Positions 6,852 to 31,101 of a stretch of DNA of 64,000 nt are shown here, piece after piece (the first letter of the stretch is position 1; the number at the start of each line of letters is the position of its first letter). The notes below the pieces were generated by a model. The model saw only the letters and a list, made by a program, of their open reading frames with translations, had not been told where the DNA came from and ran no database searches. A program made the translations under genes and the position numbers. The stretch comes from a virus, in the IMG/VR virus record IMGVR_UViG_3300027804_000039, positions 1 through 64,000 of that record; one strand, 5' to 3'.

Positions 6852-7826
6852 ATGAGCTTTAACCAAATACCATTCGAACACATAGTCCGTTTTGGACAGC
6901 AGACTATGCTGGACAGACCCTTGTTTTCAGTTAGTTGGATACTAGGTCGGTTTTGCAATTATAAATGTTCCTACTGCTGGCCCTATGCTAGAAGTGATCA
7001 ATTAGATTATCAATCTCTAGATGTTTACAAGTATACAGTCGATGAGATAAAACGTCAAGCCCAAAATAACGGGTTTACAGAGTTCCATTGGAGCTTTAGC
7101 GGTGGCGAACCTACAGCATATAAAGAACTATTAGATTTGGTTAGATACCTTGAAACAGACAAACGAAGTACATACCAAAGTATCCACATGACTACAAATT
7201 TAAGTCCAGGATCTAAATGGTGGAAAACTTGGTGCGATATCACATCAACTCTACAGCGCCGAAGCATTACTGCCAGCTATCACGCAGAGTTTGCTAAAGA
7301 ACAAGAGTTTGGAGATAAGTGCTTACAGTTAATGTATGAAAATGTTTTTGTTACTGTTAATCAAGTAATGGTTCCGGAAAAGTTTTATGAGCTATATGAT
7401 CGTATGTCTAGGTTACATCAACGAGGCATTAATGTTACCTTGAAGCCGCAAAGCAACGAAACCGCTAGTGCTATTGTAGACGGTTATACAGAAGACATGA
7501 TACACAAAATGCAAACTGGTTTTCCGCAAACAGCACATAATGAAGAAGTGTACCAAATAAGACTTAACGACGGATTTAAAGATTATTATTTTGACCAAGC
7601 CGAAAGATTCAATGCTTTTGGATTTAATAAGTTTAAAGGTTGGACTTGCAATAGCGGCTATCAAAGTGTTATAATTAGAGGTAATGAAGTTAAACGTAGT
7701 TACAGTTGCCACGATGTACCGTTAGGAACTCTAAAAGACTTTACCTTGTTTAAGGAACCAGTTAAATGTATTACACCCAGTTGTGTCAGCTCGGCAGATA
7801 GTAAGATACCAAAATGTCGAGATTAA
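6852..7826 (+). CDS. radical SAM protein with SPASM/twitch-like C-terminus
   Basis: CNYKCSYC, GGEP, C-terminal Cys cluster. Confidence 0.9.
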   Translation: MSFNQIPFEHIVRFGQQTMLDRPLFSVSWILGRFCNYKCSYCWPYARSDQLDYQSLDVYKYTVDEIKRQAQNNGFTEFHWSFSGGEPTAYKELLDLVRYLETDKRSTYQSIHMTTNLSPGSKWWKTWCDITSTLQRRSITASYHAEFAKEQEFGDKCLQLMYENVFVTVNQVMVPEKFYELYDRMSRLHQRGINVTLKPQSNETASAIVDGYTEDMIHKMQTGFPQTAHNEEVYQIRLNDGFKDYYFDQAERFNAFGFNKFKGWTCNSGYQSVIIRGNEVKRSYSCHDVPLGTLKDFTLFKEPVKCITPSCVSSADSKIPKCRD

Positions 7827-8479
7827 TTGTATTTGGATGCTCTATGTGTTACGGAGTTGGGTTACCTGATTGCTGGCCACCAACGTCTACACCTAGTAAG
7901 TTATGTTGGCCAGAAATAGTTGCCAAAGCATTGGGATATCAGTGTGTAAACATGTCAGCATCTGGATCTGGTAACAAAGCAATTTGGTATAAGATTAAGA
8001 ATTTTAAATTTGAGGAAGACGACCTTGTTTTGATTTTGTGGTCTTTTCCTAACAGGTATACACTAATAGAAGGACCTAACAACATAAAACATTTGCATCA
8101 TAATAATTACGATGAGTTATCAGTTGCATATTATAATAACTTATACGACGAGTATGATTCCCAAGTGATGTCAGAGTTATTTGTTGACCATGCAAATTAT
8201 ATTTTGAATTCGAAGAAAGTAAATTTTTATCAAATGGCAGTTAAAAAGCGATATTGGAAAATGTTTAAAGATCACCGCTATCTAAAAATAACAATGGATG
8301 CGTATGAAACATTATACCCAAGAGCACTAGACAACAGTCATGCAGGAATAGAAGGGCACAAAGCATTTTCTAAAGATTTGTTAGATATGCTTGGTTATAA
8401 AAATACTTTACCTAAAGTATCCCCTCCTAGATTTATAAACAAAATAAAACTTCCGTTATGGAAGTTATTCATTTGGTGA
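7814..8479 (+). CDS. SGNH-hydrolase-like protein
   Basis: FGCS near N-terminus, GSGN, DNSHAG. Confidence 0.5.
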   Translation: MSRLIVFGCSMCYGVGLPDCWPPTSTPSKLCWPEIVAKALGYQCVNMSASGSGNKAIWYKIKNFKFEEDDLVLILWSFPNRYTLIEGPNNIKHLHHNNYDELSVAYYNNLYDEYDSQVMSELFVDHANYILNSKKVNFYQMAVKKRYWKMFKDHRYLKITMDAYETLYPRALDNSHAGIEGHKAFSKDLLDMLGYKNTLPKVSPPRFINKIKLPLWKLFIW

Positions 8480-8482
8480 CGT

Positions 8483-9085
8483 ATGAACATTGACCTAGAT
8501 CATTTACATCATTGGATGTGTGCTATTAGAGAAAGCAAAGATCCTATGAGAACATTAGATGCGTTCTGGAGCGGCCAGATACGCAGTAAAGAATGGCTGA
8601 TTTCGGAACTACAACGGCTTAGATGCCACGTTGACGACTGGCCTTCTGTAGATATTCATGGAGGATGGGTTGGTGTACTTGCCAGTATGTTATTTCAAAG
8701 CAACCTTTACATTAAAAATATAAGAAGCATTGATATTGATCCTACGTGCGAACCTGTCGCTAACCGTATGAATCAACTTGAACTAGAAACAGGTAAGTTC
8801 AGAGCAGTGACAGCTGACATGTGTTCTATCCGAAGCGATGCAGATATTGTAATTAATACTAGTTGCGAACATATTACACAAGATGAGTTTGACCTATGGA
8901 AGAGCGGTTTGCCACAAAACAGTCTTTTAATTTTACAGGGTAACAATTATAGTATACCAGAACATAAAAGAATTTCCAGTTCATTAGATGATTTTAAAAC
9001 TCAGTGCAATTTAGATAATGTTTGGTATGCAGGCAAATTAGAATTGCCTTCTTATACACGCTTTATGGTAATTGGTAAAAAATAA
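8483..9085 (+). CDS. class I SAM-dependent methyltransferase-like protein
   Basis: GGWVG motif, IDID, ADM, NTSCEH. Confidence 0.6.
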   Translation: MNIDLDHLHHWMCAIRESKDPMRTLDAFWSGQIRSKEWLISELQRLRCHVDDWPSVDIHGGWVGVLASMLFQSNLYIKNIRSIDIDPTCEPVANRMNQLELETGKFRAVTADMCSIRSDADIVINTSCEHITQDEFDLWKSGLPQNSLLILQGNNYSIPEHKRISSSLDDFKTQCNLDNVWYAGKLELPSYTRFMVIGKK

Positions 9086-10134
9086 TGTATCAAGTAACTG
9101 CCGTACATATTGAATTAACTGACAAGTGCCAGGCCGCATGTCCAATGTGTGCTAGGAATCACAACGGCGGCAGTGAACGACCTTTTATTAAGAATACAGA
9201 AATTACATTTGATAATTTTAAACAATGGTTCCCAACTTCGTTCCTTTCTAAATTAAACAATTTTTATAGTTGCGGAAACTACGGTGATCCTGCATTTGCT
9301 ACAGACTGTTTTGAAATATATGACTATGTTAGAAATGCAAGTCCTACTGCTAGGTTAGCCATGCATACTAACGGTAGTTTAAGAAAGTCACAGTGGTGGG
9401 CAGACTTGGCAAAAGTAATGGGACAAAATGGAGAAGTTATCTTTGCTGTTGACGGATTTAAAGGAAAGCACGAATTATACAGGCGCCACACGGACTTTGA
9501 CAAAATAATTGAAAATATAAAAGCGTATGTCGGTGCTGGCGGAATTGCTAGAGTTGATAGTTTAATTTTTAAACACAATGAATCAGATGTTGAACAGTTA
9601 GAAAATTTTTTATTAGAACTGGGTGTAAAGTCTGTTAACTTTAAAAGCACAAAAAGATTCTACAACATGGATTCTTTTCCTGTGTACAATCGAGACAATA
9701 CGTTTGCATATAATATCTATCCTGCAGAAACACCTAATTTTAAACAAGAAGTAAAGATTCCTTTAGAAAACTTTTTAGACAAATCTTTTACAAAAAAAGT
9801 TATGGAGGAATCGTTAATTAATCCACAATGTGTTAATAAACAAGAAATTTATGTTGACCCGCATGGTAACATATTACCGTGTTGTTATATTGGAAGTGAT
9901 TATCTAGAACAGCCGTTAGAAGAAAAAATGGTTATACAGACACTTAGAAATATAACAGTTAACAATTCTAAACAAATGATGAACGCCATCGGTGTCCCTA
10001 ATCTACATAATGCAAATATAGAAGAACTACTAAGTCAACCAGGACTATGGGAAGATTTAGAAAATTATTGGACTGGAAAAGACAAATGTATGACCTGTGT
10101 TAAAACTTGTTCTAGTCAGCTTTACGATCTATAA
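9085..10134 (+). CDS. radical SAM/SPASM protein
   Basis: CQAACPMC and GNILPCC. Confidence 0.9.
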   Translation: MYQVTAVHIELTDKCQAACPMCARNHNGGSERPFIKNTEITFDNFKQWFPTSFLSKLNNFYSCGNYGDPAFATDCFEIYDYVRNASPTARLAMHTNGSLRKSQWWADLAKVMGQNGEVIFAVDGFKGKHELYRRHTDFDKIIENIKAYVGAGGIARVDSLIFKHNESDVEQLENFLLELGVKSVNFKSTKRFYNMDSFPVYNRDNTFAYNIYPAETPNFKQEVKIPLENFLDKSFTKKVMEESLINPQCVNKQEIYVDPHGNILPCCYIGSDYLEQPLEEKMVIQTLRNITVNNSKQMMNAIGVPNLHNANIEELLSQPGLWEDLENYWTGKDKCMTCVKTCSSQLYDL

Positions 10135-10858
10135 ATTTCAGCCATCCAAATTTTTCAAACAGTCTTGCATACCAATAAAACAAATCAAACTCAAACCATT
10201 TAATTCCAACATTTGCTCTATTAGGATATACATGGTGGTTGCTGTGCAGTTCAGCCATACCTCCAAAATAAATTCCTAACGGAAACATATTAAATGATCT
10301 ATCAGGATATTTGTTTCCTTCGTGTCGATACAGGCCAACTTTATGTGGTAGCCATGCACTTAGTAATACAAGGCCTACTTTGTCGGAAAACCACATAAGC
10401 ATTGGCGCAACTACTAAGCCTATCCACCCAAACAACATGCCATATATTAACGAAATCAAAACTATTCCGCCATACGGATATTTTGAATAGACATTGCGTT
10501 GCATCCAGTCATCGTATATAGGAACATCTGGTGCATGGTCTAGATGTGTATTTGGATCAACCCTTTTAAAATACGGATTGTGATTAGCGTTGAATAGGCC
10601 CTTTAATGAAATATGATAAGGAGAATGACTATCATTTTCCGAATCGCTGTTTTTATGATGTAGTCTGTGTGTACCAGCAGACATCCTTAACCATTGCGGC
10701 CAAGTACCCCACCGGATAGTCCAAAGTATAAATCTACAAACATGTTCAAAGCCAGGTGACACTTTAAGATATCCGTGAGAATAGCCTCTATGTACTAACA
10801 TATCCATAGTGAGAACTATGATGTGAAAATTTAACAAATAAAAAAAGAATAATTCCAT
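10112..10858 (-). CDS. membrane fatty-acid desaturase family protein
   Basis: His boxes HRGYSH, HRLHH, HSNHH plus TM segments. Confidence 0.85.
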   Translation of the reverse strand: MELFFFYLLNFHIIVLTMDMLVHRGYSHGYLKVSPGFEHVCRFILWTIRWGTWPQWLRMSAGTHRLHHKNSDSENDSHSPYHISLKGLFNANHNPYFKRVDPNTHLDHAPDVPIYDDWMQRNVYSKYPYGGIVLISLIYGMLFGWIGLVVAPMLMWFSDKVGLVLLSAWLPHKVGLYRHEGNKYPDRSFNMFPLGIYFGGMAELHSNHHVYPNRANVGIKWFEFDLFYWYARLFEKFGWLKFIDRKAD

Positions 10859-11535
10859 TATAGTTTTTCAACTTCTAAATTAATGCCGCATTGCTTTATA
10901 GACTCAACTGCTTCATCAAAGATACTAAAAATGTTTGTGTTCACTAATATTTCCTTTTCGCTTAGTCCTTTAAAACCTGTAATTTCTTTATTTTTTACAG
11001 CAGGATTAATAATACGCATTATTGGTGTATAAGCTAATTGTTTCCAGTTGTAATCTCCGTCAAGCACTTTGATCCTTAGTCCAGCGTTTAATGGATTGTA
11101 CTTAGGAAGCAACACTCTAATATTTAAGTGTACTCGTGTGCTTGCACCCCAATTTGCCGCCACATGAATTTTGCCAGTGTCCATGTGCCATATTTCTCCT
11201 GTTGCTGGTATATGATGAAGATGATTATCTGTGATACTGACTAGGTATGCATATGGATTAGTGATAATAGGCAAGTGTATTCTGTCATCGGGGTCGCAAT
11301 GTGCTGTATAACTTTCCCCAGAGTCTAATGATAGCAATCGTGCTTGTCCAATATTTTCTAAAGAATCCAGTACATCGCCCAAAGGAGTATTTTTAAATTC
11401 AGCTTTAGTTAACCATGGGTCGTTAAAGAATTGCCCAGTGCAAGTATTAAGTTCAAGTCTCTTAAATACGCCAAGAGATTTAACTTGTTCAACAATAGGA
11501 TCGATATTAAATTTTTTATCTAATAGTGTTAGCAT
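10858..11535 (-). CDS. Fe(II)/2OG oxygenase (Asp/Asn beta-hydroxylase-like)
   Basis: HCD...H facial triad, RVHL. Confidence 0.65.
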   Translation of the reverse strand: MLTLLDKKFNIDPIVEQVKSLGVFKRLELNTCTGQFFNDPWLTKAEFKNTPLGDVLDSLENIGQARLLSLDSGESYTAHCDPDDRIHLPIITNPYAYLVSITDNHLHHIPATGEIWHMDTGKIHVAANWGASTRVHLNIRVLLPKYNPLNAGLRIKVLDGDYNWKQLAYTPIMRIINPAVKNKEITGFKGLSEKEILVNTNIFSIFDEAVESIKQCGINLEVEKL

Positions 11536-12956
11536 AATAAATGCGCCAGTTCAGGAAACACTTTTTTAAAATCTGTATTACGTTGCTGGTCTAAAGCTGT
11601 AATGTACTCTTGGAAATCGGGAAGCAAGTTTGTGTGATCCTCTGAGTCCATCCAATCTAAAATCCCTTCCCATCGTTTCCATCCGTAAGGGTCAGTATTC
11701 CAAAAATGTTCATCAGTTCTATAGTTTTCTTTTAGCCAAGATTTAAGTTCGACAAATAACCGGCGAACTTCTTCTTTATCTTTTTTAGGTAGTACTCTTA
11801 AACTTAACCAAGTAGGTATCCATACTAAGTGAGCACTAAAGATTCCTCCGCTATGTGTTTCGCCTAGAATGTTATCGTCTAAATTAATTCTTTTAAACCC
11901 ACTAGTAACTTTCCACTTTATAAATTCTGGAATATGTTTAATATTTAATATTTGCACAGCGCAGGCAATGGTAGTTTCTATATTTGATGGTGCGTTGTCA
12001 AGTATTGTTAGATTTTTTACAATAGTATCCCAGTCTGCTGGATATCGGATATAGTGTAATCGTTCACCTATACCATCAATGCTAAACCCATACTTAACTT
12101 TTCTAAAGTGTTTCCATGTCTCAATGATAGAAGGATCAATTAATATTCCGTTGCTATTATATCGTAGTTCTATTTTAGCGGCATACCCTTGTTTTATAAT
12201 TTCTTGTAGGAATGTTTTGTGTTCCTTAATCATTAAAGGTTCGCCACCGGCAAAGTATATTTGTTTAATGTTAGGAATCTGTTCGTATATCTCTTCCCAG
12301 AATGCCGGGTTCTCGTGCCAGCGATTATCAAATCCTGTACGTTGCCAACTAAGTTGCTTTTTAATCAACGGGCTTTGAAAAAGCGGATAAATCTTTTTGT
12401 GGTCTTCAACCCACTTACTACTATCGTGTGGGCTACACATTACACACTTTAAATTGCAGGTATTGCCTAGTCGTAAATCAATATACTGTAACTTATAAGG
12501 AACATAGCCATCTTCTTGTGTTTGTGATATTAACGCAGGAATGTCTATTCCATGCTTGTGCCATGTGCCAGTTTCCCATATTCTTTTACTGACAACACCG
12601 TTGCTTTCTTCTTCAAAACACTTTTTACAACTTGCGGGAACATTCCCATCGAGCATGGTAGTTCGAACACTACGCATATACTCGTTGTTGAAAGCTTCGC
12701 TAGGTAAATCTTTTCCAAAGTTAGCCGGATCACCGTTTTCTTTTTTAACGAGTCCTACAGTATAGTTTCCGTCTTCTGCACCACTAGCATTGGCTACACA
12801 ACAGATACGCATATCACCGTTTGGGCGTGTTGCTAAATGTATCCACGGTAATACACAAAAACTGGCACTACCAGACACATCTTTGATTTGTTTCTGCCAA
12901 GTTCCTATCTGTGTGGATTCAGGTTGCATCCAAAATACTGTTTGAGTATTGTCCAT
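11529..12956 (-). CDS. radical SAM protein with N-terminal twitch/SPASM domain
   Basis: CVLPW...RICC, CNLKCVMC, FAGGEP. Confidence 0.9.
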   Translation of the reverse strand: MDNTQTVFWMQPESTQIGTWQKQIKDVSGSASFCVLPWIHLATRPNGDMRICCVANASGAEDGNYTVGLVKKENGDPANFGKDLPSEAFNNEYMRSVRTTMLDGNVPASCKKCFEEESNGVVSKRIWETGTWHKHGIDIPALISQTQEDGYVPYKLQYIDLRLGNTCNLKCVMCSPHDSSKWVEDHKKIYPLFQSPLIKKQLSWQRTGFDNRWHENPAFWEEIYEQIPNIKQIYFAGGEPLMIKEHKTFLQEIIKQGYAAKIELRYNSNGILIDPSIIETWKHFRKVKYGFSIDGIGERLHYIRYPADWDTIVKNLTILDNAPSNIETTIACAVQILNIKHIPEFIKWKVTSGFKRINLDDNILGETHSGGIFSAHLVWIPTWLSLRVLPKKDKEEVRRLFVELKSWLKENYRTDEHFWNTDPYGWKRWEGILDWMDSEDHTNLLPDFQEYITALDQQRNTDFKKVFPELAHLLC

Positions 12957-12967: not shown

Positions 12968-13702
12968 ATGCTACTATTATGTAGTAAATATATCATGATT
13001 ATCCCATTCGAGTCTAATTGGAAAAATGTAGCTATCAGTGTAAGTGGCGGTGCGGACTCCGCATTATTGGCATATCTAGTTTGCGAACAAGCCTACGAGC
13101 ATGACACTACAATTCATATTATTAACCATGTGCGTATGTGGAAGACACGCCCGTGGCAACAATATGATGCCGACCGTGTATATAAATGGTTGTTCCAAAG
13201 ATTCTATCATACAAATTTTAAACGCCATACTAACTTTATTGCACCGGATATCGAGTACGGTAATATTGGCCCTAATTTAACCGACGAGTACGGTAAGAAG
13301 GTCAGTGGTGATAATATACAACAACGAGCATATGGAGAGTTTATTTGTAACAAGTATAATATAGATGCTTACTACAATGCTGTTACTCGAAATCCAAGAC
13401 TGGCATCTTTCAATGGTATGCGCGAGCGCGATATTGATCCGAATGAAGATAACAAACACTTAGAAAGAATGACACACATGGGTGTAGAAGTTTTACATCC
13501 TTTTAGATTTATTGACAAATCTGAAATTGTTAAAAAATATAAAGAATTAAACTTAATGGATTTATTTGAAATAACTCGCAGTTGTGAGGGCGAGTTCGAT
13601 GGTATTGATTATACAACGTATAAGCCAGGACAGGTTGTTCCCATATGCGGTGAATGCTTCTGGTGCAAGGAACGAGAGTGGGCAATTGAACAATCAAAGT
13701 AA
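12968..13702 (+). CDS. QueC-like PP-loop ATPase
   Basis: SGGADS, TRSC and CGECFWC motifs. Confidence 0.65.
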   Translation: MLLLCSKYIMIIPFESNWKNVAISVSGGADSALLAYLVCEQAYEHDTTIHIINHVRMWKTRPWQQYDADRVYKWLFQRFYHTNFKRHTNFIAPDIEYGNIGPNLTDEYGKKVSGDNIQQRAYGEFICNKYNIDAYYNAVTRNPRLASFNGMRERDIDPNEDNKHLERMTHMGVEVLHPFRFIDKSEIVKKYKELNLMDLFEITRSCEGEFDGIDYTTYKPGQVVPICGECFWCKEREWAIEQSK

Positions 13703-14948
13703 AACATTTTGTATGCATCCTTTTACAGGACTAGCAACTAGAGAAGATGGGGCTATCAAAGCCTGCTGTCGTAGCCATCCTGTTGGGTTTATTGATAAAG
13801 AAAGTTTGGAAGAAATTTGGAACAACGACACTATGAAGCGTATTCGTCAACAAGTGTTGAACAATGAAAGACCTCCGGAGTGTGAACCTTGTTTTAATTT
13901 AGAAGATCAAGGAGTAGTGAGTTTACGACAACGTCACGTAGAGGCACGTATACCAGAGGCACGTATTAATCTATACCCAACTGCGTTGAACAACCTTAAC
14001 AGTGATTATTCAATGCCTTTTGAAATTCCAACAATGGAGTTAAAGTTAAACAACTTGTGTAATTTGAAATGTCGTATGTGCCACCCCGGAGACAGCACTA
14101 GCTGGAATGATTGGGATCAAGTAGAAGATTTCTATAAAAAAGATAACAACATTATATTTCATTTAGTTGAAGATAATAATTTAAAAAACAAACCGTTCCT
14201 TGATAAGTTTCAAGATAACCCAGCATGGTGGACAAGTTTAGAAAAACTGTTACCATATTTTCGTCGTGTAGAATTTGCCGGAGGAGAACCTCTGATGGAT
14301 CCCCAACACTATCGTATTTTAGATATGCTAAGTCCTTACGGCAATCAGATTGAAATCAAGTATGCTACTAACCTAAGTATGTTAGGAAAGAGCAATAGAA
14401 CAATTTGGGAGTACTGGCCTAAATTTAAATCTGTTGCAGTTAACATAAGTATTGATGGAATTGATGAAAGCTACGAATATATTCGAGGCAACGCCAGTTG
14501 GACAGAGTTGATTGATAATATTAAAAAGATACAAACTATTCCTAACATAAGCAGAATTGTTGGTGCGGTTACTGTACAAGTTAGTAATGTTCTTGTGCTA
14601 GATAAAATTATCAAATATTTCTTAGATGATATTGGCATTGTTTTTCATTCGCATAGGGTAGAGTTTCCAAGAGAATTATCTGCTCAAGTGTTGCCACCAA
14701 AATTAACAGCGTTGGCCATACAGCGATTGCAGGAAGTCAGTTACCATGTTAAAGATTTTAAAATGGTCAAACAACATCCTCAACTTTTAAAATACACCTT
14801 GGATCAGATACAAGACAACATTAACTATCTACAAGCAAGGGATCAAAGTCATAGATGGAGCGATTGTGTAGAATTTAATCGTAGGCTAGATCAAACTCGA
14901 AATCAAAGTTTTACCAATGTAACTCCGGAGTTTAAATCGTATGTTTAA
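13584..14948 (+). CDS. radical SAM protein with N-terminal twitch/SPASM domain
   Basis: CMHPF...ACC, CNLKCRMC, FAGGEP; true start probably TTG at 13686. Confidence 0.9.
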   Translation: MRASSMVLIIQRISQDRLFPYAVNASGARNESGQLNNQSKTFCMHPFTGLATREDGAIKACCRSHPVGFIDKESLEEIWNNDTMKRIRQQVLNNERPPECEPCFNLEDQGVVSLRQRHVEARIPEARINLYPTALNNLNSDYSMPFEIPTMELKLNNLCNLKCRMCHPGDSTSWNDWDQVEDFYKKDNNIIFHLVEDNNLKNKPFLDKFQDNPAWWTSLEKLLPYFRRVEFAGGEPLMDPQHYRILDMLSPYGNQIEIKYATNLSMLGKSNRTIWEYWPKFKSVAVNISIDGIDESYEYIRGNASWTELIDNIKKIQTIPNISRIVGAVTVQVSNVLVLDKIIKYFLDDIGIVFHSHRVEFPRELSAQVLPPKLTALAIQRLQEVSYHVKDFKMVKQHPQLLKYTLDQIQDNINYLQARDQSHRWSDCVEFNRRLDQTRNQSFTNVTPEFKSYV

Positions 14949-22142: not shown

Positions 22143-23664
22143 TGTAGTCCTCTTTGCCGATACTCCAGGTGTTGACTGGTTCAGCCGAGGTTACGGTGCT
22201 TATAGGCTTGCCAGTGAAATTAGGAAAGCGGGTTATACTGTACTTGTTGTCGACTTTACATCGGCAATGAGTTTTGATTTGTTCAAAGAAATCATTGACA
22301 AAACTGTATCGGATCAAACACTATTAGTTGGCTTTAGTACTACTTGGTTTCCTTATAGACATGATGCTAGACCAAACAGTAGGTATAGTGTAGGTACCAG
22401 GACTCTTCAGAAGCCGTCACCGTGGGACGACTTTAGTGTTGAAGAACACGATTGGTATCGTAACAGTTTAAGTTACAGATTCAGTGGAGATGGCATAGAG
22501 GACTACGTAGACTATATTAGATCTAAAAATAAAAAGACCAAGGTAGTTATTGGTGGCGGAAAAAGTTACGAATATATAACTGAGCCTAGTGTTGATAATG
22601 TATTCATTGGATACAGTGAAAATCAAATGATTGATTATTTGCACAGTATTAGCGGTAAAGGACCTAAAAGGTTATTTAATAAGATTATTAATTACGATAT
22701 AAAAGCACAGAGCGGAGACTTTATATTCAACGAAGCTATTACAGAATATCAAGATTCTGATGGTATAACATCAGAAGAAGTTCTTACTATTGAGTTTAGT
22801 CGAGGCTGTATTTTCAATTGTAGTTTTTGCAGTTATCCACACAGAGGACAAAGTACAAGAGAATATGTAAAGTATCAAGAAGTCATTAGAAAAGAAATGA
22901 TGGACAACTGGGAAAAATGGGGAACCTATAAGTACTTGATTACCGACGATACTTTTAATGATTACACAGATAAGTTAAGATTAATCAATGAAGTAATACA
23001 AACACTTCCGTTCAAACCGCAGTTCTGGGCATATTTAAGGATGGATCTTATATCTGCAAACCCAGAGCAAGCACAGTTAATAAAAGACATTGGCATTGTA
23101 GAAGCATACTGGGGATTAGAAACTTGGTGTGATGCAACTGCTAAAGCAGTTAAAAAAGGCGGGAGTCATAAAAAGAAAATTGAAGGTTTAAAGATAGCTA
23201 AAGAGTGTTGGGGCGATAGTTTATACTTAACAGCAGGCATAGTTATTGGATTACCTAAAGATACAATTGAAAGTGTTAAAGCAGTTAGTCACTGGTATGT
23301 GGAAGAAGGTCACAAGTATATTGATTTATTAACCTTCTGGCCGTTAAGTCTTAGAGCAAATACTGATCTTGACCAGTATATGTTCTTGTCTGAAATTGAG
23401 ATGAATTTAGAAAAGTTTGGATATAATGTTCCAAACGACTTAACTTGGACTAGAAGTGACGAAGGCGATATTACTTCTAAAGAACAAGCCGATGCATTAA
23501 TGTTTGAATGCAACGATATTGTCAAAAATTACTGGACTATCAAAAGAGTAGTTTGGGACTATAGTCATTTAGAAAAAATGTGGCCCAGTAGTTCACGGAC
23601 AGAAACTGTATATAACTATATTACAAAACACTATTATCCTAATTTGCTAAAGCATTTAAGATAA
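22135..23664 (+). CDS. B12-binding-domain radical SAM protein
   Basis: SRGCIFNCSFC, DDTFND; resembles 18786..20279. Confidence 0.85.
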   Translation: MYNVVLFADTPGVDWFSRGYGAYRLASEIRKAGYTVLVVDFTSAMSFDLFKEIIDKTVSDQTLLVGFSTTWFPYRHDARPNSRYSVGTRTLQKPSPWDDFSVEEHDWYRNSLSYRFSGDGIEDYVDYIRSKNKKTKVVIGGGKSYEYITEPSVDNVFIGYSENQMIDYLHSISGKGPKRLFNKIINYDIKAQSGDFIFNEAITEYQDSDGITSEEVLTIEFSRGCIFNCSFCSYPHRGQSTREYVKYQEVIRKEMMDNWEKWGTYKYLITDDTFNDYTDKLRLINEVIQTLPFKPQFWAYLRMDLISANPEQAQLIKDIGIVEAYWGLETWCDATAKAVKKGGSHKKKIEGLKIAKECWGDSLYLTAGIVIGLPKDTIESVKAVSHWYVEEGHKYIDLLTFWPLSLRANTDLDQYMFLSEIEMNLEKFGYNVPNDLTWTRSDEGDITSKEQADALMFECNDIVKNYWTIKRVVWDYSHLEKMWPSSSRTETVYNYITKHYYPNLLKHLR

Positions 23665-24881
23665 TCTGTGCTCCGTGTTTTATCATAAAGTTTTAAAACT
23701 CGTTCTCTTTCTTTAGAAACTTCTTCAGTGTTGCTAACTGGAGTGTACATAAAATTATCAATCGATTTTACTAAGTTTAGCATATCAGGATTTTCTCTAA
23801 ATATTTTATAGTTAGAATTCTTAACCAGATACTCGTTAACAATTTTAGAAATTTCTTTCTTTTTGTCTGTGCTCAAATACTGAATGTTAAAATAATCAGG
23901 GTACATGACAAATTGAAAATTTATAATAAATCTTTTCTTATACTCCTGGCTTAGTAGTTCCCAGTGATCAAATATTTCTGGCAAGTCAAAAATATTAAAT
24001 ATGCTCCACGTGGTGCTTAATTTAATTTCTATTTGACTATTTGACATCAACGTTTTAAGATTATTATAAAAATGGTTGTAGTTTGCAGGATACCGAATAT
24101 AGTTAAACTTAACAGGATCAACATGGTCATAACTGACCATAATAATAGGATGTTTAAAACTACTGAAATACTTTATTATCTTTGGATTGATTGTTGTTAA
24201 ATTTGTAATCATGGACAACATCATATTTTGAGAATATCCTTGGTCAACACAATGCTTGATGAGCTCAAGTGCTACTGGATTAACTAACGGTTCTCCTCCT
24301 ACTAAGTTTAATTCTTTTGAAACACTTAGGCTAGGATCTAAATTTTTAATTACAGAATCAACATTGATGTTTTTAGGATTATACTCGTCCAAAGATATAT
24401 TAAGTTTTTTGAGTCTTTCGTCAAACAATTTAATTAGAGTTGGGGGCGTTTCTCCTTGCTCAATCCATTGCTCGACTTCTTCTTGATGCTGACTACTGGC
24501 TCCTGGATAACATGTAATACACTTTAAGTTACACAATGTGCCTACTTTAATGTTAAGCATAGTAGGCAACTGTTCAACTACTCCTTCAGTATAAAATCCT
24601 TCTAGTTCTTTTATACTCTGCTGTCGTTTACTAAACACCCCAGATGCTTCGTGTTTCCAGCAAGTTTGACAAGTCTCATTTTCAACTCCGTCAAGTAAAT
24701 CCTGTCTAAGTTGTTTATAAAAGTCACTGTTCCATACTTCTACAATGCTGTCCTTTCGCATATTATAAGAAGTACCGTCCTCTTTTAGTATTGCTGTTTC
24801 TTCGCTGTAGCAACACACACGATAGTTTCCATCGTTAGTTGAGCTTATGTGTACGAAAGGTAATGGACAAAATTTACTCAT
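23634..24881 (-). CDS. radical SAM protein with N-terminal twitch/SPASM domain
   Basis: CPLPF...RVCC, CNLKCITC, VGGEP. Confidence 0.9.
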   Translation of the reverse strand: MSKFCPLPFVHISSTNDGNYRVCCYSEETAILKEDGTSYNMRKDSIVEVWNSDFYKQLRQDLLDGVENETCQTCWKHEASGVFSKRQQSIKELEGFYTEGVVEQLPTMLNIKVGTLCNLKCITCYPGASSQHQEEVEQWIEQGETPPTLIKLFDERLKKLNISLDEYNPKNINVDSVIKNLDPSLSVSKELNLVGGEPLVNPVALELIKHCVDQGYSQNMMLSMITNLTTINPKIIKYFSSFKHPIIMVSYDHVDPVKFNYIRYPANYNHFYNNLKTLMSNSQIEIKLSTTWSIFNIFDLPEIFDHWELLSQEYKKRFIINFQFVMYPDYFNIQYLSTDKKKEISKIVNEYLVKNSNYKIFRENPDMLNLVKSIDNFMYTPVSNTEEVSKERERVLKLYDKTRSTDYLKCFSKLG

Positions 24882-25515
24882 ATACTTTTTTATAAATCTC
24901 TGGCAAAGGATCTCCAGGCCATTTTATGTAATCGTTAAAGGCGTGTTTAATCAACACGGACATATCTAGTCTTCCATCAACGCTTAGATTCTCTACTAAT
25001 GCCAATCTGTCATCGTTGAGTACAGGCTTGTAAAAGTCCATACCAATTGGTTGCTCTGAGTATTCGCTAGTACTATAAAATACAAAAGCATGAAGTATAT
25101 CGTTATCGTCGGTGTAAAAACACTTTGGATAGAAATTAGGCTTGTATAGTTTTTCTTTGTGCAAGTCTTTTACAATTTGTTCTAGTTGTGCTTTGTAGTT
25201 TTTAGGTAAGTAACTTTCAGCAGTATTATTGTACCATTTAAAAACAATTCGTTTTGCATACGGATTAATTTCAAGAATCTTAGGAGCCCAATTGTAGTGC
25301 AATATCTTTAACAACATATTCTTTTCTCTGTTAAAGCTAGACTCAATTAATTCAGCAGGATATTTTTTGCTCGTTGGATTAAAATTCATACAGGCAGTTG
25401 TGCCGTTAATTTCCAAAAAGAATATACCCTGGTCGATTATTTCCATCATGTATTTACTATGCCATAAATACCTCATGGATAATAATGAAGCACTGGTTCG
25501 TTGGTTGTTTGCCAA
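24874..25515 (-). CDS. hypothetical protein, possibly kinase-like fold
   Basis: Paralogous pattern with 30397..31101 (RE..L, P.I..I, S YF..D..L..FY). Confidence 0.45.
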   Translation of the reverse strand: MANNQRTSASLLSMRYLWHSKYMMEIIDQGIFFLEINGTTACMNFNPTSKKYPAELIESSFNREKNMLLKILHYNWAPKILEINPYAKRIVFKWYNNTAESYLPKNYKAQLEQIVKDLHKEKLYKPNFYPKCFYTDDNDILHAFVFYSTSEYSEQPIGMDFYKPVLNDDRLALVENLSVDGRLDMSVLIKHAFNDYIKWPGDPLPEIYKKVYE

Positions 25516-26113
25516 ACCAGAACGTATAGATTGGTTAGAATTAAAGGTACCATTTGATATAAGTCAATGGGAAGAGGAAGCCAAACAAGTAGAACCTTAC
25601 TATGTTTCTCACAGAGGTTCAGAAGAACATGATGGTTGGACTAGTTGCTGTTTACACGGGCTTGGTGTTGATAAAACAAACGGATACGAGTTTTATCAAG
25701 ACACTGATAACGGATACAATTGGACAGAATTAACTAAACTTGCTCCAAGTATAACACAATTTTGGAAGTCATTTCCAGCAGAGTCTTACAAAAGAATTCG
25801 CTTTATGAAATTAGCCGCAGGCGGCAGAATTAATTTACATAGAGACTGCGAGCCCGATGACCTACAAGGGTTTGATCCGTTTGAACACGACTTTGCTTTA
25901 AATGTAGCAATTATACAACCACAAGATTGTATCATGACAGTTGACGGGAAAACAGTACCTTGGGTTTCAGGCATGAGTATACTTTTAAATGTGAGCAAAG
26001 ATCACGAAGTAATTAATAACAGCAATCAGGATAGGATTCATATGATTGCACATTTTAAAGTAGGAAATAAAAAGGACGAGTTCTGCGAACTTGTCAGTAG
26101 GAGTAGAACGTGA
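25367..26113 (+). CDS. Fe(II)/2OG oxygenase (Asp/Asn beta-hydroxylase-like)
   Basis: RIRFMKL, HRD...H, RIHMI; likely start at 25475. Confidence 0.75.
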   Translation: MLVGLKFIQAVVPLISKKNIPWSIISIMYLLCHKYLMDNNEALVRWLFAKPERIDWLELKVPFDISQWEEEAKQVEPYYVSHRGSEEHDGWTSCCLHGLGVDKTNGYEFYQDTDNGYNWTELTKLAPSITQFWKSFPAESYKRIRFMKLAAGGRINLHRDCEPDDLQGFDPFEHDFALNVAIIQPQDCIMTVDGKTVPWVSGMSILLNVSKDHEVINNSNQDRIHMIAHFKVGNKKDEFCELVSRSRT

Positions 26114-27192
26114 TCAAATACGGAAATACAAATCACAGTGACATTCTAGTGTGCGTATTGGATCAAATTGACCAATGCGTACCTTCTTCTCGTAATTTAA
26201 TTAAAAATGTAAGCGATCAAACACTTTTTAAATTAAGTGAAAAATTTTTTATAGTAGTAAGTAAAGACTTAGAAGAGATGCTTATGTTTGCTAAAGCATT
26301 TTTTAAAGCAGCAGTTATTGTTCCTACGGGTATTGACATTCTTGATGTTAGTGTAGTTGATATAGAATTAACAGATAAATTTCAAATTATAAATTTAAAA
26401 GATAAAGCTAAAGACATTCTGTTGCACAAAGCAAACAAGATGGATTTAGCTAATAATATTTTTTATGTTGACGGGTCTACCGAGGAAGCATTTGAAAAAA
26501 GCCTAGAGTGGCAAAACAAAAAATTTAGTTTAGGGCATGGCGCATTCTTTTATCCGGTTAATAACGAGCCAATGCATGATTTACAAATGCCAAAAATACA
26601 ACAATTAGTTACACCTGCGGCAGGACTTAACTGGGTTAATTATTTAAATCGATACGGCTATGACGAGAATACTACAGTTCGTTTTTATGATTATAGTTAC
26701 CTAGCATTAGATTGTATGAAAGAAGTTGTTTTACATTACAATGGTGGATCCTATAAAGATTTTATTATGAAACTAGGTCGTAGTAAATTTAGATTTATAG
26801 GAAGAGAATGGGATTACGGCTTTGCTAGTATGTATAACGATAACGAACCAGAGAACTGGTTGCATATTGTTAACACAGTTAAATTTGATTTCGTTCATAT
26901 TAATGTACTTGAAAATTTTGATGTAAAGAGTTTAGTAGATGATTGCCCAGGAACGTTTGTTAATTTCAGTAACATATTCAGCTATTACTTAACTAGTGCA
27001 TTTTACAGTTTAAAGACAAGACTCGATGCTGAACAACGAATTATAAATGACTTAATGAGTTACGATTGCTATGTTGGTTTTGTTACAAGAGCCGGAAATG
27101 TTTATAACAAAGATCCACAACTTGCAGGACATATTAGCAAATTTAATAACGTTGAAAAATTACAGTTGCCTACATGGTATGAAACTAATTGA
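26110..27192 (+). CDS. hypothetical protein
   Basis: 360 aa ORF, operonic. Confidence 0.6.
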   Translation: MIKYGNTNHSDILVCVLDQIDQCVPSSRNLIKNVSDQTLFKLSEKFFIVVSKDLEEMLMFAKAFFKAAVIVPTGIDILDVSVVDIELTDKFQIINLKDKAKDILLHKANKMDLANNIFYVDGSTEEAFEKSLEWQNKKFSLGHGAFFYPVNNEPMHDLQMPKIQQLVTPAAGLNWVNYLNRYGYDENTTVRFYDYSYLALDCMKEVVLHYNGGSYKDFIMKLGRSKFRFIGREWDYGFASMYNDNEPENWLHIVNTVKFDFVHINVLENFDVKSLVDDCPGTFVNFSNIFSYYLTSAFYSLKTRLDAEQRIINDLMSYDCYVGFVTRAGNVYNKDPQLAGHISKFNNVEKLQLPTWYETN

Positions 27193-27682
27193 AATTACAG
27201 TAAACGATCATAACGAAGACAATCAGCTTCGTGCTATACCAGTTGAGTATGAGTATGCTATTGTTACTCGTGCTGGGCATTCTTTTTTAGATAAAGAATT
27301 GTTTATTAAAGAATTAGAAAACAAAAGATTTTTTATTATAGGTCATGTTCTTGATAGAGAACTTGTTAAGGGCTATTACGAGCTGCATGTGCAATGTTAT
27401 GTTATTCATTTGCCAACATACAGAGAATTAGGATGTCCTAGCATCGGACAACAACAGTTTCACGCCCCGCATATACAAGTATCTCCAAAACGTAGCGATG
27501 AGAACTACCACGATGATTATACACCTTGGTGGGTGGAATCAGGAACAAGTAAAAGGCAGTACGAACACAAAGCACACGGCTGGAATGTTTTGAGTATTGC
27601 TTTTGAAAAAAAATTACCTGTACTAGTTTTTAATAGTGCTATGCGTAAAACAAAGGAATTCAATTATGAAATTAATAGGTAA
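27071..27682 (+). CDS. hypothetical protein
   Basis: Likely start at 27179, overlapping the upstream stop. Confidence 0.55.
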   Translation: MLVLLQEPEMFITKIHNLQDILANLITLKNYSCLHGMKLIEITVNDHNEDNQLRAIPVEYEYAIVTRAGHSFLDKELFIKELENKRFFIIGHVLDRELVKGYYELHVQCYVIHLPTYRELGCPSIGQQQFHAPHIQVSPKRSDENYHDDYTPWWVESGTSKRQYEHKAHGWNVLSIAFEKKLPVLVFNSAMRKTKEFNYEINR

Positions 27683-28220
27683 TACTGGCGACAGCATTCT
27701 ATGGGACGCTGTTATTGAAAGTTGTTCTAAACACAAAGGTCAAACTCTAATTTATGATAGAGGTGCGTTTCCCAAAACTGAAGACTTTGACAAAATGGAT
27801 GCCATGATGCAAAAAGCAGGATATCAGTACGGAACAGATGCAGTTGAATGGACAAACTTTTTTCCAGGAGAACACTTTGATCAGATAGTTGCAGATGCGT
27901 TTGCAAAGATAGTCAATGCAACTCCTTGGATGGTTTGGATAAGCAAGATACGCCCAGGAAAAATTACACCGTGGCATTGGGACGCACATCAAGCCATAGT
28001 TGAATTTAAAAAGTTACCTAACCCTGTTCGGTATACTTGTTATATACAACAGCCGCACGACGGCCATGTTAGTATTGTCGAGGATACTGTTATATACAAA
28101 CCCAAGCAAGGATCTATATATCAATGGCCCACATGCTATTCGTGGCATGCAGGTTTAAACTGTGGGTATGCCGACAAGTATATGTTTAACTTCTGGGGAT
28201 ATCAATCGCAGACTGAATGA
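27636..28220 (+). CDS. Fe(II)/2OG oxygenase-like (cupin) protein
   Basis: HWD...WHAG; likely start at 27666. Confidence 0.65.
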   Translation: MLCVKQRNSIMKLIGNTGDSILWDAVIESCSKHKGQTLIYDRGAFPKTEDFDKMDAMMQKAGYQYGTDAVEWTNFFPGEHFDQIVADAFAKIVNATPWMVWISKIRPGKITPWHWDAHQAIVEFKKLPNPVRYTCYIQQPHDGHVSIVEDTVIYKPKQGSIYQWPTCYSWHAGLNCGYADKYMFNFWGYQSQTE

Positions 28221-28965
28221 TTAAACACCATTTTGCATCAAAGCCGTGTTTTTTCCAGTCATTGCTACAATGTAGTCTGTAAGCGTCCATTGTCATCATA
28301 GACTGTCGCTTCCAAGGAAAAACAGTTTCTAAACTTAGACCTTCCAGTGCTTGTTCTGTATGCTGGCTAACATGGTCATAGTTTGACATATCAAACAGTT
28401 TGTTTGTTTTTAACTCTACATCAAATATCTCAGCACCGTATGCTCTACGATACTGATACTGTTCAAACATAACTGTACTGATACCAGACCAGTCATCTGT
28501 AAATTTTCCATCACGTTCTGCTGCTAACGGAATTACGTAAGTAAATGACGGCAATCTATCTGGCCAATTGTAAACATGATCTGTATGCAATGGCAAACTA
28601 TTAACTGCTCTACGCACAAACATGTTGTCTATTTTAAAGTCGCCTCTGACAGCTTTGATTTTATCTACAGTTAATTCCATAATTCTATTGTAGTTAGGAT
28701 ACTCTGGATTAATATTTGCTAGAGCACTCCCTCCTTCCCAAAACAAATGCCATGTAGGGTTGTCTACAATTAAACTAGTAAGCTCTTTAAATTCTTCTGG
28801 TGTTAAAAACTCTTCTACTTTGCTAGAATGTTTTCTTTGACGCATCATATCAATTCGTTGTTCGTCGAAATCAATTTTCTGATGTTCTTTCCAAGCAGTG
28901 AATACTTCTAAGCAGTAATCAAAACCAGGTTGATCCTTATACATTACTGGAGGTGCATCGCTCAT
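28186..28965 (-). CDS. Fe(II)/2OG oxygenase-like protein
   Basis: LHTD...LHCS. Confidence 0.6.
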   Translation of the reverse strand: MSDAPPVMYKDQPGFDYCLEVFTAWKEHQKIDFDEQRIDMMRQRKHSSKVEEFLTPEEFKELTSLIVDNPTWHLFWEGGSALANINPEYPNYNRIMELTVDKIKAVRGDFKIDNMFVRRAVNSLPLHTDHVYNWPDRLPSFTYVIPLAAERDGKFTDDWSGISTVMFEQYQYRRAYGAEIFDVELKTNKLFDMSNYDHVSQHTEQALEGLSLETVFPWKRQSMMTMDAYRLHCSNDWKKHGFDAKWCLIIQSAIDIPRS

Positions 28966-29588
28966 ATCTTACCTGTTATTTTTAATAGTTCTGGCACATC
29001 TTCAATTTCAACTTTAAAGAACAAATGTACTCTAATTTCATTGCTTTGATTTAATACTGAGTGTTGCTGTGTTGTATTCCATGCATATATGCTGCCATCT
29101 GCTGGATAGTGTTCCCAATACACTGGCTCTTTGTTTTCGTTGTCCCATGTTAGAAAACTTTTTTCAGGACTGTACAAAGGCAAGTGTATATGCCAATGAC
29201 TATCTTGATGAGAAACTATACCTCCGCCAGGCGGCGTTTCACTTAGACTTAGCCATTTTGCCATTGGAATTTTCTTTAGTAGTTTTTCTGCAAAACCAAA
29301 AACCATTGGATTATCTTTTCTTAAAATAGGATTGTACGTGTCAACAATCCACGGAGCGCATACATCGTCTGTTTCTAAATGAGATTGTATGGCCCAACCG
29401 CCTGGATGCATCTCGTAAGCAACATTTTCAAATCCATACCATGCTTCTTTTGTAAGACGCTTTTCTCCCTCGTATACATTCCAACGTTTGTCAGCAAAAT
29501 CTTTTTTTAAAATTTCGTAGTATTCCTTAGCTTCGTCTAGGTCAGCATATACTTGTAATTTAATTGCTAGTTCGTCTAATGGTTTCAT
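28962..29588 (-). CDS. Fe(II)/2OG oxygenase (Asp/Asn beta-hydroxylase-like)
   Basis: HQD, HLPL, HSV, RVHL. Confidence 0.7.
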   Translation of the reverse strand: MKPLDELAIKLQVYADLDEAKEYYEILKKDFADKRWNVYEGEKRLTKEAWYGFENVAYEMHPGGWAIQSHLETDDVCAPWIVDTYNPILRKDNPMVFGFAEKLLKKIPMAKWLSLSETPPGGGIVSHQDSHWHIHLPLYSPEKSFLTWDNENKEPVYWEHYPADGSIYAWNTTQQHSVLNQSNEIRVHLFFKVEIEDVPELLKITGKI

Positions 29589-30388
29589 TAATAACTCTCT
29601 ATATGGTCTACACCCAGTTGTTTACGGAATGCCTCGGTAAACTTTCCATCAATCCTTAACCCATAACTTTGTTCCATAATTCTTTCGCCGCCGTGCCAAT
29701 CAGTATCATTCCACCAAGCTGCTCGACAATTAATATAAGTCTTGTTTTTATTTTCTGGATCCCATAAGTAAAATGCTTTCTTAGTATTAGGGCGAATGTG
29801 TATGAATTCGTTACGATGAGGTTTGACAATATTCATGCCGTTTTTAGCGTCCAAGTCTCTGTGTTCAAAAGGAATACCGTCTGCTTCACAATGAAAGAAT
29901 ATAACACGGCCGATATCTTGAAATATAGTTCCTACCATGCTCTCGACCCATTTGACTACATTAGGAAAGTATTGTGCTTCTTCCGTTAGTTTACGAGGCG
30001 CTGTTCTATCATCCCAGGATCCTTCTTCCCACAGAAAATAATATATGTAAGGATCGTATGCGCCCATGGCCATTTTAAGAAAACGTGTGAGTTTATTACG
30101 CATTTTGTAATCGCCAAAGTCTTTACAAAACTCACTACCAGCTAGTTTAATTGGATCGTTGTTGTCCAGAGCCATAAATTCTTCGAGGGCTTGGTACATT
30201 GGTTTCCAATTTGGAATGTAGCTCATATTTTCAAATGTAAATCCTGGCTTCATCCATGTACCTTCTTTTGCATACATTCTTGCTTCTGCAAACCCTGTGA
30301 TAATTTCTGGTTGCAGTTCTTGAAATTTAGCCATATCAATATACTGTTCCATATTGAAATAAGGTTGGCCGTTAATACCTCTTAACAT
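29588..30388 (-). CDS. Fe(II)/2OG oxygenase-like protein
   Basis: GRVIFF, EHRD, WHGG, LRIDG. Confidence 0.55.
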   Translation of the reverse strand: MLRGINGQPYFNMEQYIDMAKFQELQPEIITGFAEARMYAKEGTWMKPGFTFENMSYIPNWKPMYQALEEFMALDNNDPIKLAGSEFCKDFGDYKMRNKLTRFLKMAMGAYDPYIYYFLWEEGSWDDRTAPRKLTEEAQYFPNVVKWVESMVGTIFQDIGRVIFFHCEADGIPFEHRDLDAKNGMNIVKPHRNEFIHIRPNTKKAFYLWDPENKNKTYINCRAAWWNDTDWHGGERIMEQSYGLRIDGKFTEAFRKQLGVDHIESY

Positions 30389-30396
30389 ATCTATCC

Positions 30397-31101
30397 TTGA
30401 TAATTAAATGTATGAATTACGAATACTATTATAACAATGTGCCTGGACACGGGTTATGTCGCAATAATCTTATTTACACTAGTTTAATGAGTACTGATAA
30501 AAAAGTCTTTGTACAACATTATACAACAGAAGGAGATTATCATAAAGGGCAGAACCAAGTAGTAGATCCTTCTAAAATGACAGCTAAATGGTTGCGAGAA
30601 GTTAACTACCTTACCCAAATGCGTAATAGATATCCTGAACTTGTTCCAACAATTATCAATATAGATTTAGAAAGACAAAAACTATTCTTACAAGTAGATG
30701 GTCCTGACTTTTGGGAAATGTCAAAATGCAATAGTGCCAATTTTGATGAAGTATTACCCAACTGGCAAGACCAAATGCTGAACATTATTAAAGCACACAA
30801 GTCTTTAGGATTATACAAATACAGTATGCATCCTAGTAGCTATTTTGTAGTAGACGGAAAGTTAAAAAGTATCAACTACTTCTTCACTTATAACGGTAAT
30901 GAAGGTCCTATTACTATTGCTGATCATGCTAGTCACATTTATAGTACTAGACAAGACGAAATGAAAAAATATATTTCAGAATTAGGAATTGGTTGGGATC
31001 AACCTCAACCGTTGCCACTCATGGAAAAACTCTGTTGGAATAGTTTTAGAACTAACTACCCAACAGAGTTTATTGAAAAGGTACTTGCTATATTAGAATA
31101 A
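30397..31101 (+). CDS. hypothetical protein, possibly kinase-like fold
   Basis: Paralog-like to 24874..25515. Confidence 0.45.
   Translation: MIIKCMNYEYYYNNVPGHGLCRNNLIYTSLMSTDKKVFVQHYTTEGDYHKGQNQVVDPSKMTAKWLREVNYLTQMRNRYPELVPTIINIDLERQKLFLQVDGPDFWEMSKCNSANFDEVLPNWQDQMLNIIKAHKSLGLYKYSMHPSSYFVVDGKLKSINYFFTYNGNEGPITIADHASHIYSTRQDEMKKYISELGIGWDQPQPLPLMEKLCWNSFRTNYPTEFIEKVLAILE

Follow-up and report, generated by a model that had tools for sequence, protein, structure and literature searches.

The 64,000-nt window analysed here is the first part of a single 191,095-bp virus contig (IMG/VR record IMGVR_UViG_3300027804_000039), which belongs to an uncultured freshwater T4-like giant phage and is about 50% complete according to CheckV. 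Between positions 6852 and 31101 it carries an island of 28 open reading frames (ORFs), named hereafter by their first coordinate, which abut or overlap each other with a widest internal gap of 39 nt. The GC content of the island is 0.358, compared to 0.405 in the remaining contig. An initial annotation of this region, made from the sequence alone, had described it as a biosynthetic island of radical S-adenosylmethionine (SAM) enzymes and Fe/2-oxoglutarate (2OG) oxygenases located next to a tail-fibre gene. Pfam and NCBIfam scores were judged against the curated cut-off of each model.

The ten radical SAM enzymes of that annotation were all recovered. The Pfam Radical_SAM model (PF04055) was matched above its gathering cut-off by 6852, 9085, 11529, 13584, 14941, 15812, 18786, 21072, 22135 and 23634, and the CxxxCxxC motif is intact in the ten proteins. 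No further Radical_SAM match was found across the 191-kb contig: all ten are inside the island, a number far beyond that of cultured phages. They comprise three N-terminal-twitch enzymes of the NCBIfam family NF033640, two B12-type enzymes and five short ones. None of the ten reaches the cut-off of a named functional (equivalog) NCBIfam model, NCBIfam places none of the seven enzymes other than the N-twitch group in any family above cut-off, and PHROGs offered only the generic label "radical SAM domain-containing protein".

The N-twitch enzymes are encoded by 11529..12956 (minus strand), 13584..14948 (plus strand, with TTG 13686 as the likely true start) and 23634..24881 (minus strand). Their NF033640 scores are 409.5, 337.1 and 276.8 bits, respectively (cut-off 170), and the matches span the full length of the model. 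In these proteins a Cys-rich domain (FCxxP...CC...CxxC) is N-terminal to the CxxxCxxC motif: the Pfam SPASM match at residues 5-113 precedes the Radical_SAM match, and C34, C52, C53, C110 and C113 are invariant ahead of C167, C171 and C174. The two B12-type enzymes, 18786..20279 and 22135..23664 (both plus strand), have B12-radical SAM families as their best NCBIfam matches, all far under the cut-offs. For the B12-binding N-terminal domains proposed for them, the PF02310 matches are weak and under the cut-off (16.8 bits for 18786 and 19.2 bits for 22135, cut-off 32.1).

The five short enzymes are 6852..7826 (plus strand, Radical_SAM 47 bits), 9085..10134 (plus), 14941..15828 (plus), 15812..16822 (minus) and 21072..22142 (plus). 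Their CxxxCxxC motif begins at residues 15-35 (residue 35 in 6852, which carries no N-terminal domain), and such a short distance to the start leaves no room for a leader-binding domain. They show weak likeness to QueE, MoaA, viperin and TYW1, and 9085 weakly resembles a W-cofactor maturase and BlsE; 14941 has a C-terminal Cys cluster. A single-sequence search of the PDB with 22135 and 21072 gave no match. The paralogue groups of the initial annotation (9085/21072, 18786/22135 and 11529/13584/23634) were found as described, and 6852/14941/15812 is an additional set. Since the paralogues are only 22-29% identical, the duplications must be old.

Concerning the oxygenases, five of the six that had been proposed were verified as 2OG/AspH-type enzymes, and the sixth, 28186..28965 (minus strand), is a putative oxygenase in which an HxD...H motif is the only sign. 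The cut-off of PF05118 (AspH, Asp_Arg_Hydrox; 22.6 bits) is exceeded by 10858..11535 (minus strand, 26.1 bits; H79, D81 and H124 invariant), 25367..26113 (plus strand, 55.8 bits) and 28962..29588 (minus strand, 33.9 bits), where HxD...H triads were seen. The family of 27636..28220 (plus strand), an AspH-like cupin oxygenase that is often multi-copy in related phages, aligned with the 10858 family (hhalign 90%, E 1.6e-6) with the HxD and H positions in register; its H104, D106 and H161 are invariant. For 29588..30388 (minus strand; H176, D178 and H232 invariant) hhalign indicated no relation to the 10858 family and a profile search against PDB sequences gave nothing usable, so its assignment comes from a fold search: the model (predicted local distance difference test, pLDDT, 78.5) is a predicted 2OG double-stranded beta-helix with 87 PDB matches at E<=0.001, and all those listed are 2OG oxygenases.

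The "QueC-like" gene, 12968..13702 (plus strand), encodes a PP-loop ATP pyrophosphatase. It passes the Pfam QueC model (28 bits, cut-off 22) with its C-terminal 75 residues, which hold a QueC-like Cys motif, but it is not a QueC equivalog (20.3 bits against TIGR00364, cut-off 150.3), and it is far under the TilS, NadE and MnmA equivalog cut-offs as well. Two membrane di-iron enzymes had been called desaturases. In 16770..17582 (minus strand) the assignment is strong (Pfam FA_desaturase, 71 bits); 10112..10858 (minus strand) is desaturase/hydroxylase-like, with a weak Pfam FA_hydroxylase match, and it is a paralogue of 16770 and 61562 with three His boxes.

Related loci were collected with one IMG/VR scan using the 11529 protein, which retrieved 73 orthologous phage loci with 54-81% identity, save one at 35%; 41 of them are at least 18 kb and are referred to as long loci. 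Within the island bounds of the 73 loci, 794 of 974 ORFs (82%) belong to families of the window. Orthologs of 13584 and 14941 were present in all 41 long loci, as was the 9085 family, followed by 6852 (33/41), 8483 (30/41), 12968 (24/41), 29588 (20/41) and 30397 (18/41). Moreover, the 14941 ortholog comes directly after 13584 in 53 of 62 loci, and its start overlaps the end of 13584 by 8 nt in the window and mostly by 4 nt in the relatives, an arrangement in which the two genes appear to be translationally coupled. The core therefore consists of 6852, 8483, 11529, 12968 and the 13584-14941 pair, kept while gene order differs among lineages. Because this core is kept and 82% of the relatives' island ORFs fall in the same families, the island is not a random collection. 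The biosynthetic set proposed initially could have turned out to be genes individually shuffled among phages; what was found is a core maintained in 73 phage contigs and in bacterial chromosomes, with its order shuffled.

On the other hand, the variable genes include the desaturases and the B12 enzymes (present in 1 and 9 of the 41 long loci, respectively). A homologue of 16770 was seen among the phage loci only in the closest relative (L002), and none of 10112 was found in the 73 loci. The stretch 15812-29588, about 14 kb, is common only to the closest relative, G027, in which the whole island is collinear with 55-89% identity and one extra radical SAM gene. The slot itself is fixed, with genes 3932, 4651 and 5731 on one side in several relatives. 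The islands of the relatives also include a gene of the UDP-glucose/GDP-mannose dehydrogenase family in 12 loci, an NAD epimerase/dehydratase in nine, an aminotransferase, and, in one relative, an adenosine phosphosulfate (APS) kinase with a sulfotransferase. The commonest accessory gene (L020:7396-8568), with homologues in 25 of the 73 loci, has no Pfam match and carries an S-L-S-K-G motif typical of pyridoxal phosphate (PLP) enzymes; it is absent from the window's contig.

At the nucleotide level, none of 50,697 phage records matched the island in a megablast search, the flank matched through tRNAs only, and no close cultured relative of the contig was found. At the protein level, the N-twitch enzyme was matched by only four of these records. 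The questions raised here can be tested because two carriers are in culture, Ralstonia phage RsoM2USA and Vibrio phage K566/K567. Phage K566 (L148, record 158052-177239) has a tandem of about four N-twitch-like radical SAM genes, for the most part labelled hypothetical; genes for a PagP-like lipid A acyltransferase and for a nicotinamide phosphoribosyltransferase lie a few genes away. Furthermore, freshwater metagenomes of at least seven studies dated 2019-2025 also contain island DNA, with variation at the strain level.

The same kit is present in bacterial chromosomes. In a search of one genome per prokaryotic species, 23 of 26 Pseudobdellovibrionaceae genomes carried 2-29 N-twitch copies above cut-off, compared to none of 14 control genomes. 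Across five chromosomal islands of this family, 72 of 140 ORFs are homologous to the window's island. They include a block 8483 / 11529 / 9085 / 6852 with identities of 34-37% (8483), 47-48% (11529) and 51-53% (6852), as well as PP-loop, AspH and B12-radical SAM genes and the 26110/27071 pair. In one bacterial kit (L075) an FA_desaturase lies inside, and a SIS domain sugar-phosphate isomerase and a methyltransferase are also present, the former beside the kit. Single N-twitch genes were found in metagenome-assembled genomes of Acidobacteriota and Gammaproteobacteria, where the six nearest neighbours are rich in glycosyltransferases (GT2 16/108, GT1 8/108). In one Pseudobdellovibrionaceae genome (G025:C1:745513-774880; L137, L138), a stretch of 30 kb has no fewer than ten radical SAM genes of the N-twitch type, interleaved with 14941-like, AspH-like and 26110/27071-like genes.

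The gene bordering the island, 31093..32274 (minus strand), encodes a protein of 393 residues outside the enzyme set. It has a motif in common with proteins annotated as fibres in cyanophages and pelagiphages, and matches Pfam Mtd_N just under the cut-off, so the tail-fibre gene of the initial annotation is better described as fibre-like, not a proven tail fibre. It lies on the same side of the island in G027, G028 and G030. Among these relatives the fibre-like protein is 38-43% identical and the island enzymes 55-89%; the fibre-like gene thus diverges faster than the enzymes, which leaves a positional linkage, and the co-variation that was to be checked is not visible. Beyond this gene come rIIB (32399-33385) and rIIA (33363-35528). 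In G027 (C1:9440-11676; L149) the fibre-like gene is directly followed by a homologue of 37910-38518 (89% identity), with rIIB, rIIA and 35994 located elsewhere or absent.

Regarding expression, the hexamer TAAATA is found 4-6 nt ahead of the start codon in 15 of 281 contig ORFs, with a sharp positional peak over a flat background. Four of these boxes lead island units: 6838-6843 (6852, TAAATA-N6-ATG), 12961-12966 (11529, TAAATA-N4-ATG), 18768-18773 (18175, TAAATA-N5-TTG) and 21061-21066 (21072, TAAATA-N5-ATG). If the box is a T4-type late promoter, so tight a spacing would make the transcripts nearly leaderless. Two metatranscriptome libraries from two studies held contigs of 150-400 nt identical to parts of 6852, 7814, 8483, 10858, 16770, 18786, 25367 and 26110; since RNA libraries may contain DNA, they are no proof of transcription, and the uncovered parts mean nothing.

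The possible substrates were narrowed with further searches. No precursor peptide had been identified initially, and none was found in the island, where the widest gap offers no room for one. Cys/His/Ser-repeat peptides (CHxS, HxS or CH repeats) were not detected in the contig, the 73 loci or the bacterial islands, apart from one match in L021 that looks like chance. No island protein gave a Pfam match to a leader-recognition domain (RRE/PqqD-like), a leader peptidase or an exporter, a divergent RRE not having been specifically searched for. The route through a leader peptide, as in peptides that are ribosomally synthesized and then post-translationally modified (RiPPs), is unsupported, given the lack of space for a precursor and of a repeat peptide and the short enzymes without an N-terminal domain. 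Likewise, no TGT/DpdA, QueD (PTPS), FolE (GTP cyclohydrolase I) or thymidylate-synthase-type hydroxymethylase was found in the 191 kb, about half of the genome.

Taking these data together, the substrate of the island is most likely of carbohydrate type, either a nucleotide-sugar or a glycan of the host envelope or the virion, whose C-H bonds would be edited; this is a tentative reading to which we give somewhat less than even odds. It draws on the GT-rich surroundings of single cellular homologues, on the UDP-glucose dehydrogenase, epimerase, aminotransferase and sulfation genes of the relatives, on the SIS isomerase next to the L075 kit, and on pelagimyophage host-recognition islands, in which radical SAM cassettes occur together with tail fibres and many glycosyltransferases (Zaragoza-Solas et al. 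2020, PMC7029224). The architecture seems to be of small-molecule type, since five radical SAM enzymes leave no room for leader binding and the N-twitch model (13584, pLDDT 82) fits BlsE as well as peptide maturases. In addition, 2-29 paralogues per bacterial genome would fit diverse glycan-type substrates.

The mechanism that we infer is a modular kit of tailoring enzymes all acting on one substrate class. The starting sugar would be supplied by the host or, in some relatives, be made by a UDP-sugar dehydrogenase and an epimerase that the phage itself encodes. Pairs formed by an N-twitch enzyme and a short radical SAM partner whose C-terminus has a Cys cluster would abstract hydrogen from unactivated C-H bonds, which could result in epimerisation, dehydrogenation, deoxygenation or C-C chemistry. 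For the addition of C-methyl groups the B12-type enzymes are the candidates, the AspH/2OG oxygenases could hydroxylate, and the PP-loop enzyme might activate a carboxylate, for example to an amide. Methyltransferase-like and kinase-like proteins may cap the product, which would belong to the envelope or the virion if it is a glycan. The kit is probably expressed with the gene class that bears the TAAATA box 4-6 nt before its start codon. The complex prediction for 13584 with 14941 scored 0.00 in both runs, which speaks neither for nor against their pairing.

Several results weigh against a sugar substrate. Pfam scans of the window's island revealed no glycosyltransferase or nucleotide-sugar enzyme, and there is no glycosyltransferase in the 73 phage loci either (66 accessory clusters). 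The only one in the contig, a GT4 enzyme at 55592-56596, is 24 kb from the island, and it has no homologue in the 73 island loci, that is, it is not linked to the island. In the Pseudobdellovibrionaceae islands, the ORFs outside the kit mostly lack a Pfam family and just one of 52 is a glycosyltransferase; being GT-poor, these islands indicate that the glycosyltransferase link stems from the lineages with single genes and not from those with the whole kit. Structure and sequence likeness do not split sugar from peptide enzymes: the fold search with the N-twitch model ranked SkfB, BlsE, anSME, CteB and viperin about equally (Z 10.1 for BlsE, 10.2 for the peptide maturases). Moreover, no tested activity for any NF033640 member was found in the literature, and AspH-family enzymes are known above all for modifying protein side chains (Asp/Asn hydroxylation) and lipid A acyl chains.

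In a different proposal, the enzymes directly modify amino-acid side chains of phage proteins, chiefly the fibre-like protein, without a leader peptide. Hydroxylation, C-methylation, cross-links or epimerisation would then tune receptor binding or stability. The fibre-like gene at the border of the island here and in three relatives, the SkfB, anSME and CteB matches of the N-twitch model, the same start-proximal box on four transcription units, the Asp/Asn hydroxylation typical of the AspH family and the APS kinase and sulfotransferase in one relative's island are consistent with it, and for bacterial operons with beta-hydroxylase-type dioxygenases and sulfotransferases the predicted targets are tail-collar or collagen-like proteins encoded alongside (Iyer, Abhiman and Aravind 2010, PMC2938197). 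Nevertheless, the enzymes and the fibre-like protein do not visibly co-vary, ten radical SAM enzymes are hard to justify for one 393-residue protein, no Cys/His-repeat or other repeat substrate was found, and the kit also exists in bacterial chromosomes. One of those genomes, G001, has no match to the T4 portal Pfam model, although this proves little because the model also missed the phage contig, and the control genomes likewise gave none. Direct modification of fibre or other virion proteins is less probable than a sugar substrate, yet a serious rival to it. The product is still not readable from sequence, as the initial annotation had stated, with sugar-type editing and direct modification of the fibre protein both in play. 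It seems improbable, on the other hand, that there is no common pathway at all and that the island is a hypervariable parking slot next to the fibre gene, its units acting singly on different host metabolites. Such a slot would account for the many short units of alternating orientation, the gene order shuffled between relatives, the stretch shared only with G027 and the old paralogues, and fixed-position hypervariable islands are typical of T4-like aquatic phages (PMC7029224); but the repertoire is closed, nearly every long locus has the core genes together, bacterial chromosomes carry core genes as a block, and 13584 and 14941 appear to be coupled.

Remodelling of the infected cell's membrane lipids or lipid A through desaturation, acyl hydroxylation and C-methylation is judged still less probable. 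The lipid A hydroxylase LpxO is a member of the AspH family. Three genes of the FA_desaturase family are found in the window (10112, 16770 and 61562) and one within the L075 kit, for the B12 radical SAM enzymes the best weak matches are to lipid or hopanoid methylases and to the tetraether synthase, and a PagP-like gene is near the K566 cluster. However, the desaturases and B12 enzymes are among the variable genes, all lipid-family matches are far under their cut-offs, and the core enzymes are predicted to be soluble. Least probable of all, in our view, is hypermodification of phage DNA or of the 38 tRNAs that the contig encodes along with a transfer-messenger RNA (tmRNA), for instance by 7-deazaguanine-type chemistry with the QueC-like and QueE-like genes. 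It would make sense of the C-terminal QueC match, of the weak likeness of the short enzymes to QueE, MoaA, viperin and TYW1, all of which act on nucleotides, and of such a large tRNA set. This branch of the initial annotation nonetheless received no support: the partner enzymes searched for are missing from the contig, though it is only about half of the genome, the QueC equivalog score is very low, and so many N-twitch paralogues per bacterial genome are unlike a nucleic-acid modification system.

Among known systems, the island resembles the host recognition cluster of pelagimyophages and cyanomyophages in being a hypervariable block by a fibre gene of an aquatic T4-like phage, with AspH genes. 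Those pelagimyophages have AspH in the core of the group and a curli operon, and the difference in radical SAM cassettes between close relatives is given in one sentence, not analysed (PMC7029224). The window's island differs in having no glycosyltransferase, in consisting almost purely of redox tailoring enzymes and in being flanked by rIIB/rIIA. Cyanophage Syn9 carries ten tandem dioxygenases, proposed to tailor a metabolite or a fibre or collagen-like protein (PMC2938197). Both are phage arrays of unrelated Fe/2OG dioxygenases that include the beta-hydroxylase type, but Syn9 has no radical SAM set, and such enzymes dominate here. BtrN, BlsE, DesII and AprD4, from aminoglycoside and nucleoside antibiotic pathways, are likewise short radical SAM enzymes without leader-binding domains. 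BlsE shares first place among the structural matches of the N-twitch model, and BlsE, BtrN and DesII are among the weak sequence or fold matches; however, identity is 10-16%, the auxiliary-cluster domain is N-terminal here and C-terminal in that group, and the island has no antibiotic scaffold genes. With the HXS antiphage system and radical SAM RiPP maturation (HxsA with HxsB/HxsC; PMC13128918) the island shares paired radical SAM enzymes and weak HxsB/HxsC matches, but these matches score 20-30 bits against cut-offs of 268-370 and no (HxS)n repeat appears in six frames.

NF033640 has so far been a family name without a tested function, and here its members are part of a conserved phage kit that also includes AspH oxygenases, a PP-loop enzyme and the short radical SAM partners. 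The literature search returned only a single sentence on radical SAM cassettes in the islands of pelagimyophages and the dioxygenase arrays of Syn9, and no paper combining radical SAM, SPASM and Bdellovibrio. The kit is widespread, in at least 73 phage contigs, in freshwater metagenomes and in Bdellovibrio-like bacteria with as many as 29 copies in one genome, and its radical SAM enzymes fall outside named functional families; discovering the substrate would therefore explain what a large group of enzymes without annotation does. A new kind of phage or host surface modification, with a bearing on host range and superinfection, could come to light as well. Known Pseudobdellovibrionaceae prey on other bacteria. 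A more speculative and unlikely extension is that a mobile kit, centred on pairs of an N-twitch and a short SPASM-like radical SAM enzyme and shared as a block by them and T4-like aquatic phages, performs a novel C-H editing of envelope or surface glycoconjugates of the attacker or the attacked cell; if true, two unrelated kinds of predators of bacteria would alter surface chemistry with the same tool.

The remaining ORFs of the island are less defined. The core gene 8483..9085 (plus strand) encodes a conserved 200-residue protein without Pfam or PDB sequence match, and its family profile gave nothing usable against PDB sequences. Its look-alikes in a fold atlas are virus clusters, the nearest named ones being Methyltransf_31, so a class I methyltransferase fold is a lead only. 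The same strength applies to the other labels of the initial annotation: short-chain dehydrogenase-like for 18175..18762 (minus strand; weak, Pfam Epimerase E 0.008), SGNH-like by motif for 7814..8479 (plus strand, 221 residues, no Pfam or NCBIfam match) and 20262..21032 (minus strand, 256 residues, weak DUF6473 match), which are tied through an intermediate homologue, and kinase-like for 24874..25515 (minus strand, no Pfam or NCBIfam match, family in 29/41 long loci) and 30397..31101 (plus strand). The latter forms a conserved pair with 29588 and has a weak protein-kinase-like fold (profile against PDB, E 1e-3). In 30397 an invariant H145-P146-x-S148 (HPSS) occupies the place where protein kinases carry HxD, and the protein may be a pseudokinase or have another chemistry.

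Proteins 17555..18175 (minus strand, 206 residues), 26110..27192 (plus strand, 360 residues) and 27071..27682 (plus strand) match no Pfam or NCBIfam family. There is an atlas lead from 26110 to LIC_10091/DUF7790 clusters, and 25367 travels with 26110 and 27071 by synteny. For the ten island proteins without a family, the sole NCBIfam match was that of the PP-loop protein, far under its cut-off.

Outside the island, a tRNA with anticodon CTA (amber-reading, called tRNA-Pyl by ARAGORN) is located at 58841-58916 (minus strand), beside the tmRNA gene at 59529-59952 (minus strand) and apart from the 37-gene tRNA array at 42741-49250; the island ORFs read normally in table 11. An auxiliary run at 50600-57502 encodes a PfkB-like kinase fragment, a peroxiredoxin, a class I glutamine amidotransferase, a TerC membrane protein, the GT4 enzyme and a metallophosphoesterase. 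Finally, the third gene of the FA_desaturase family, at 61562-62320 (plus strand), is 30 kb from the island, and its product is 27% identical to 10112 and 16770.

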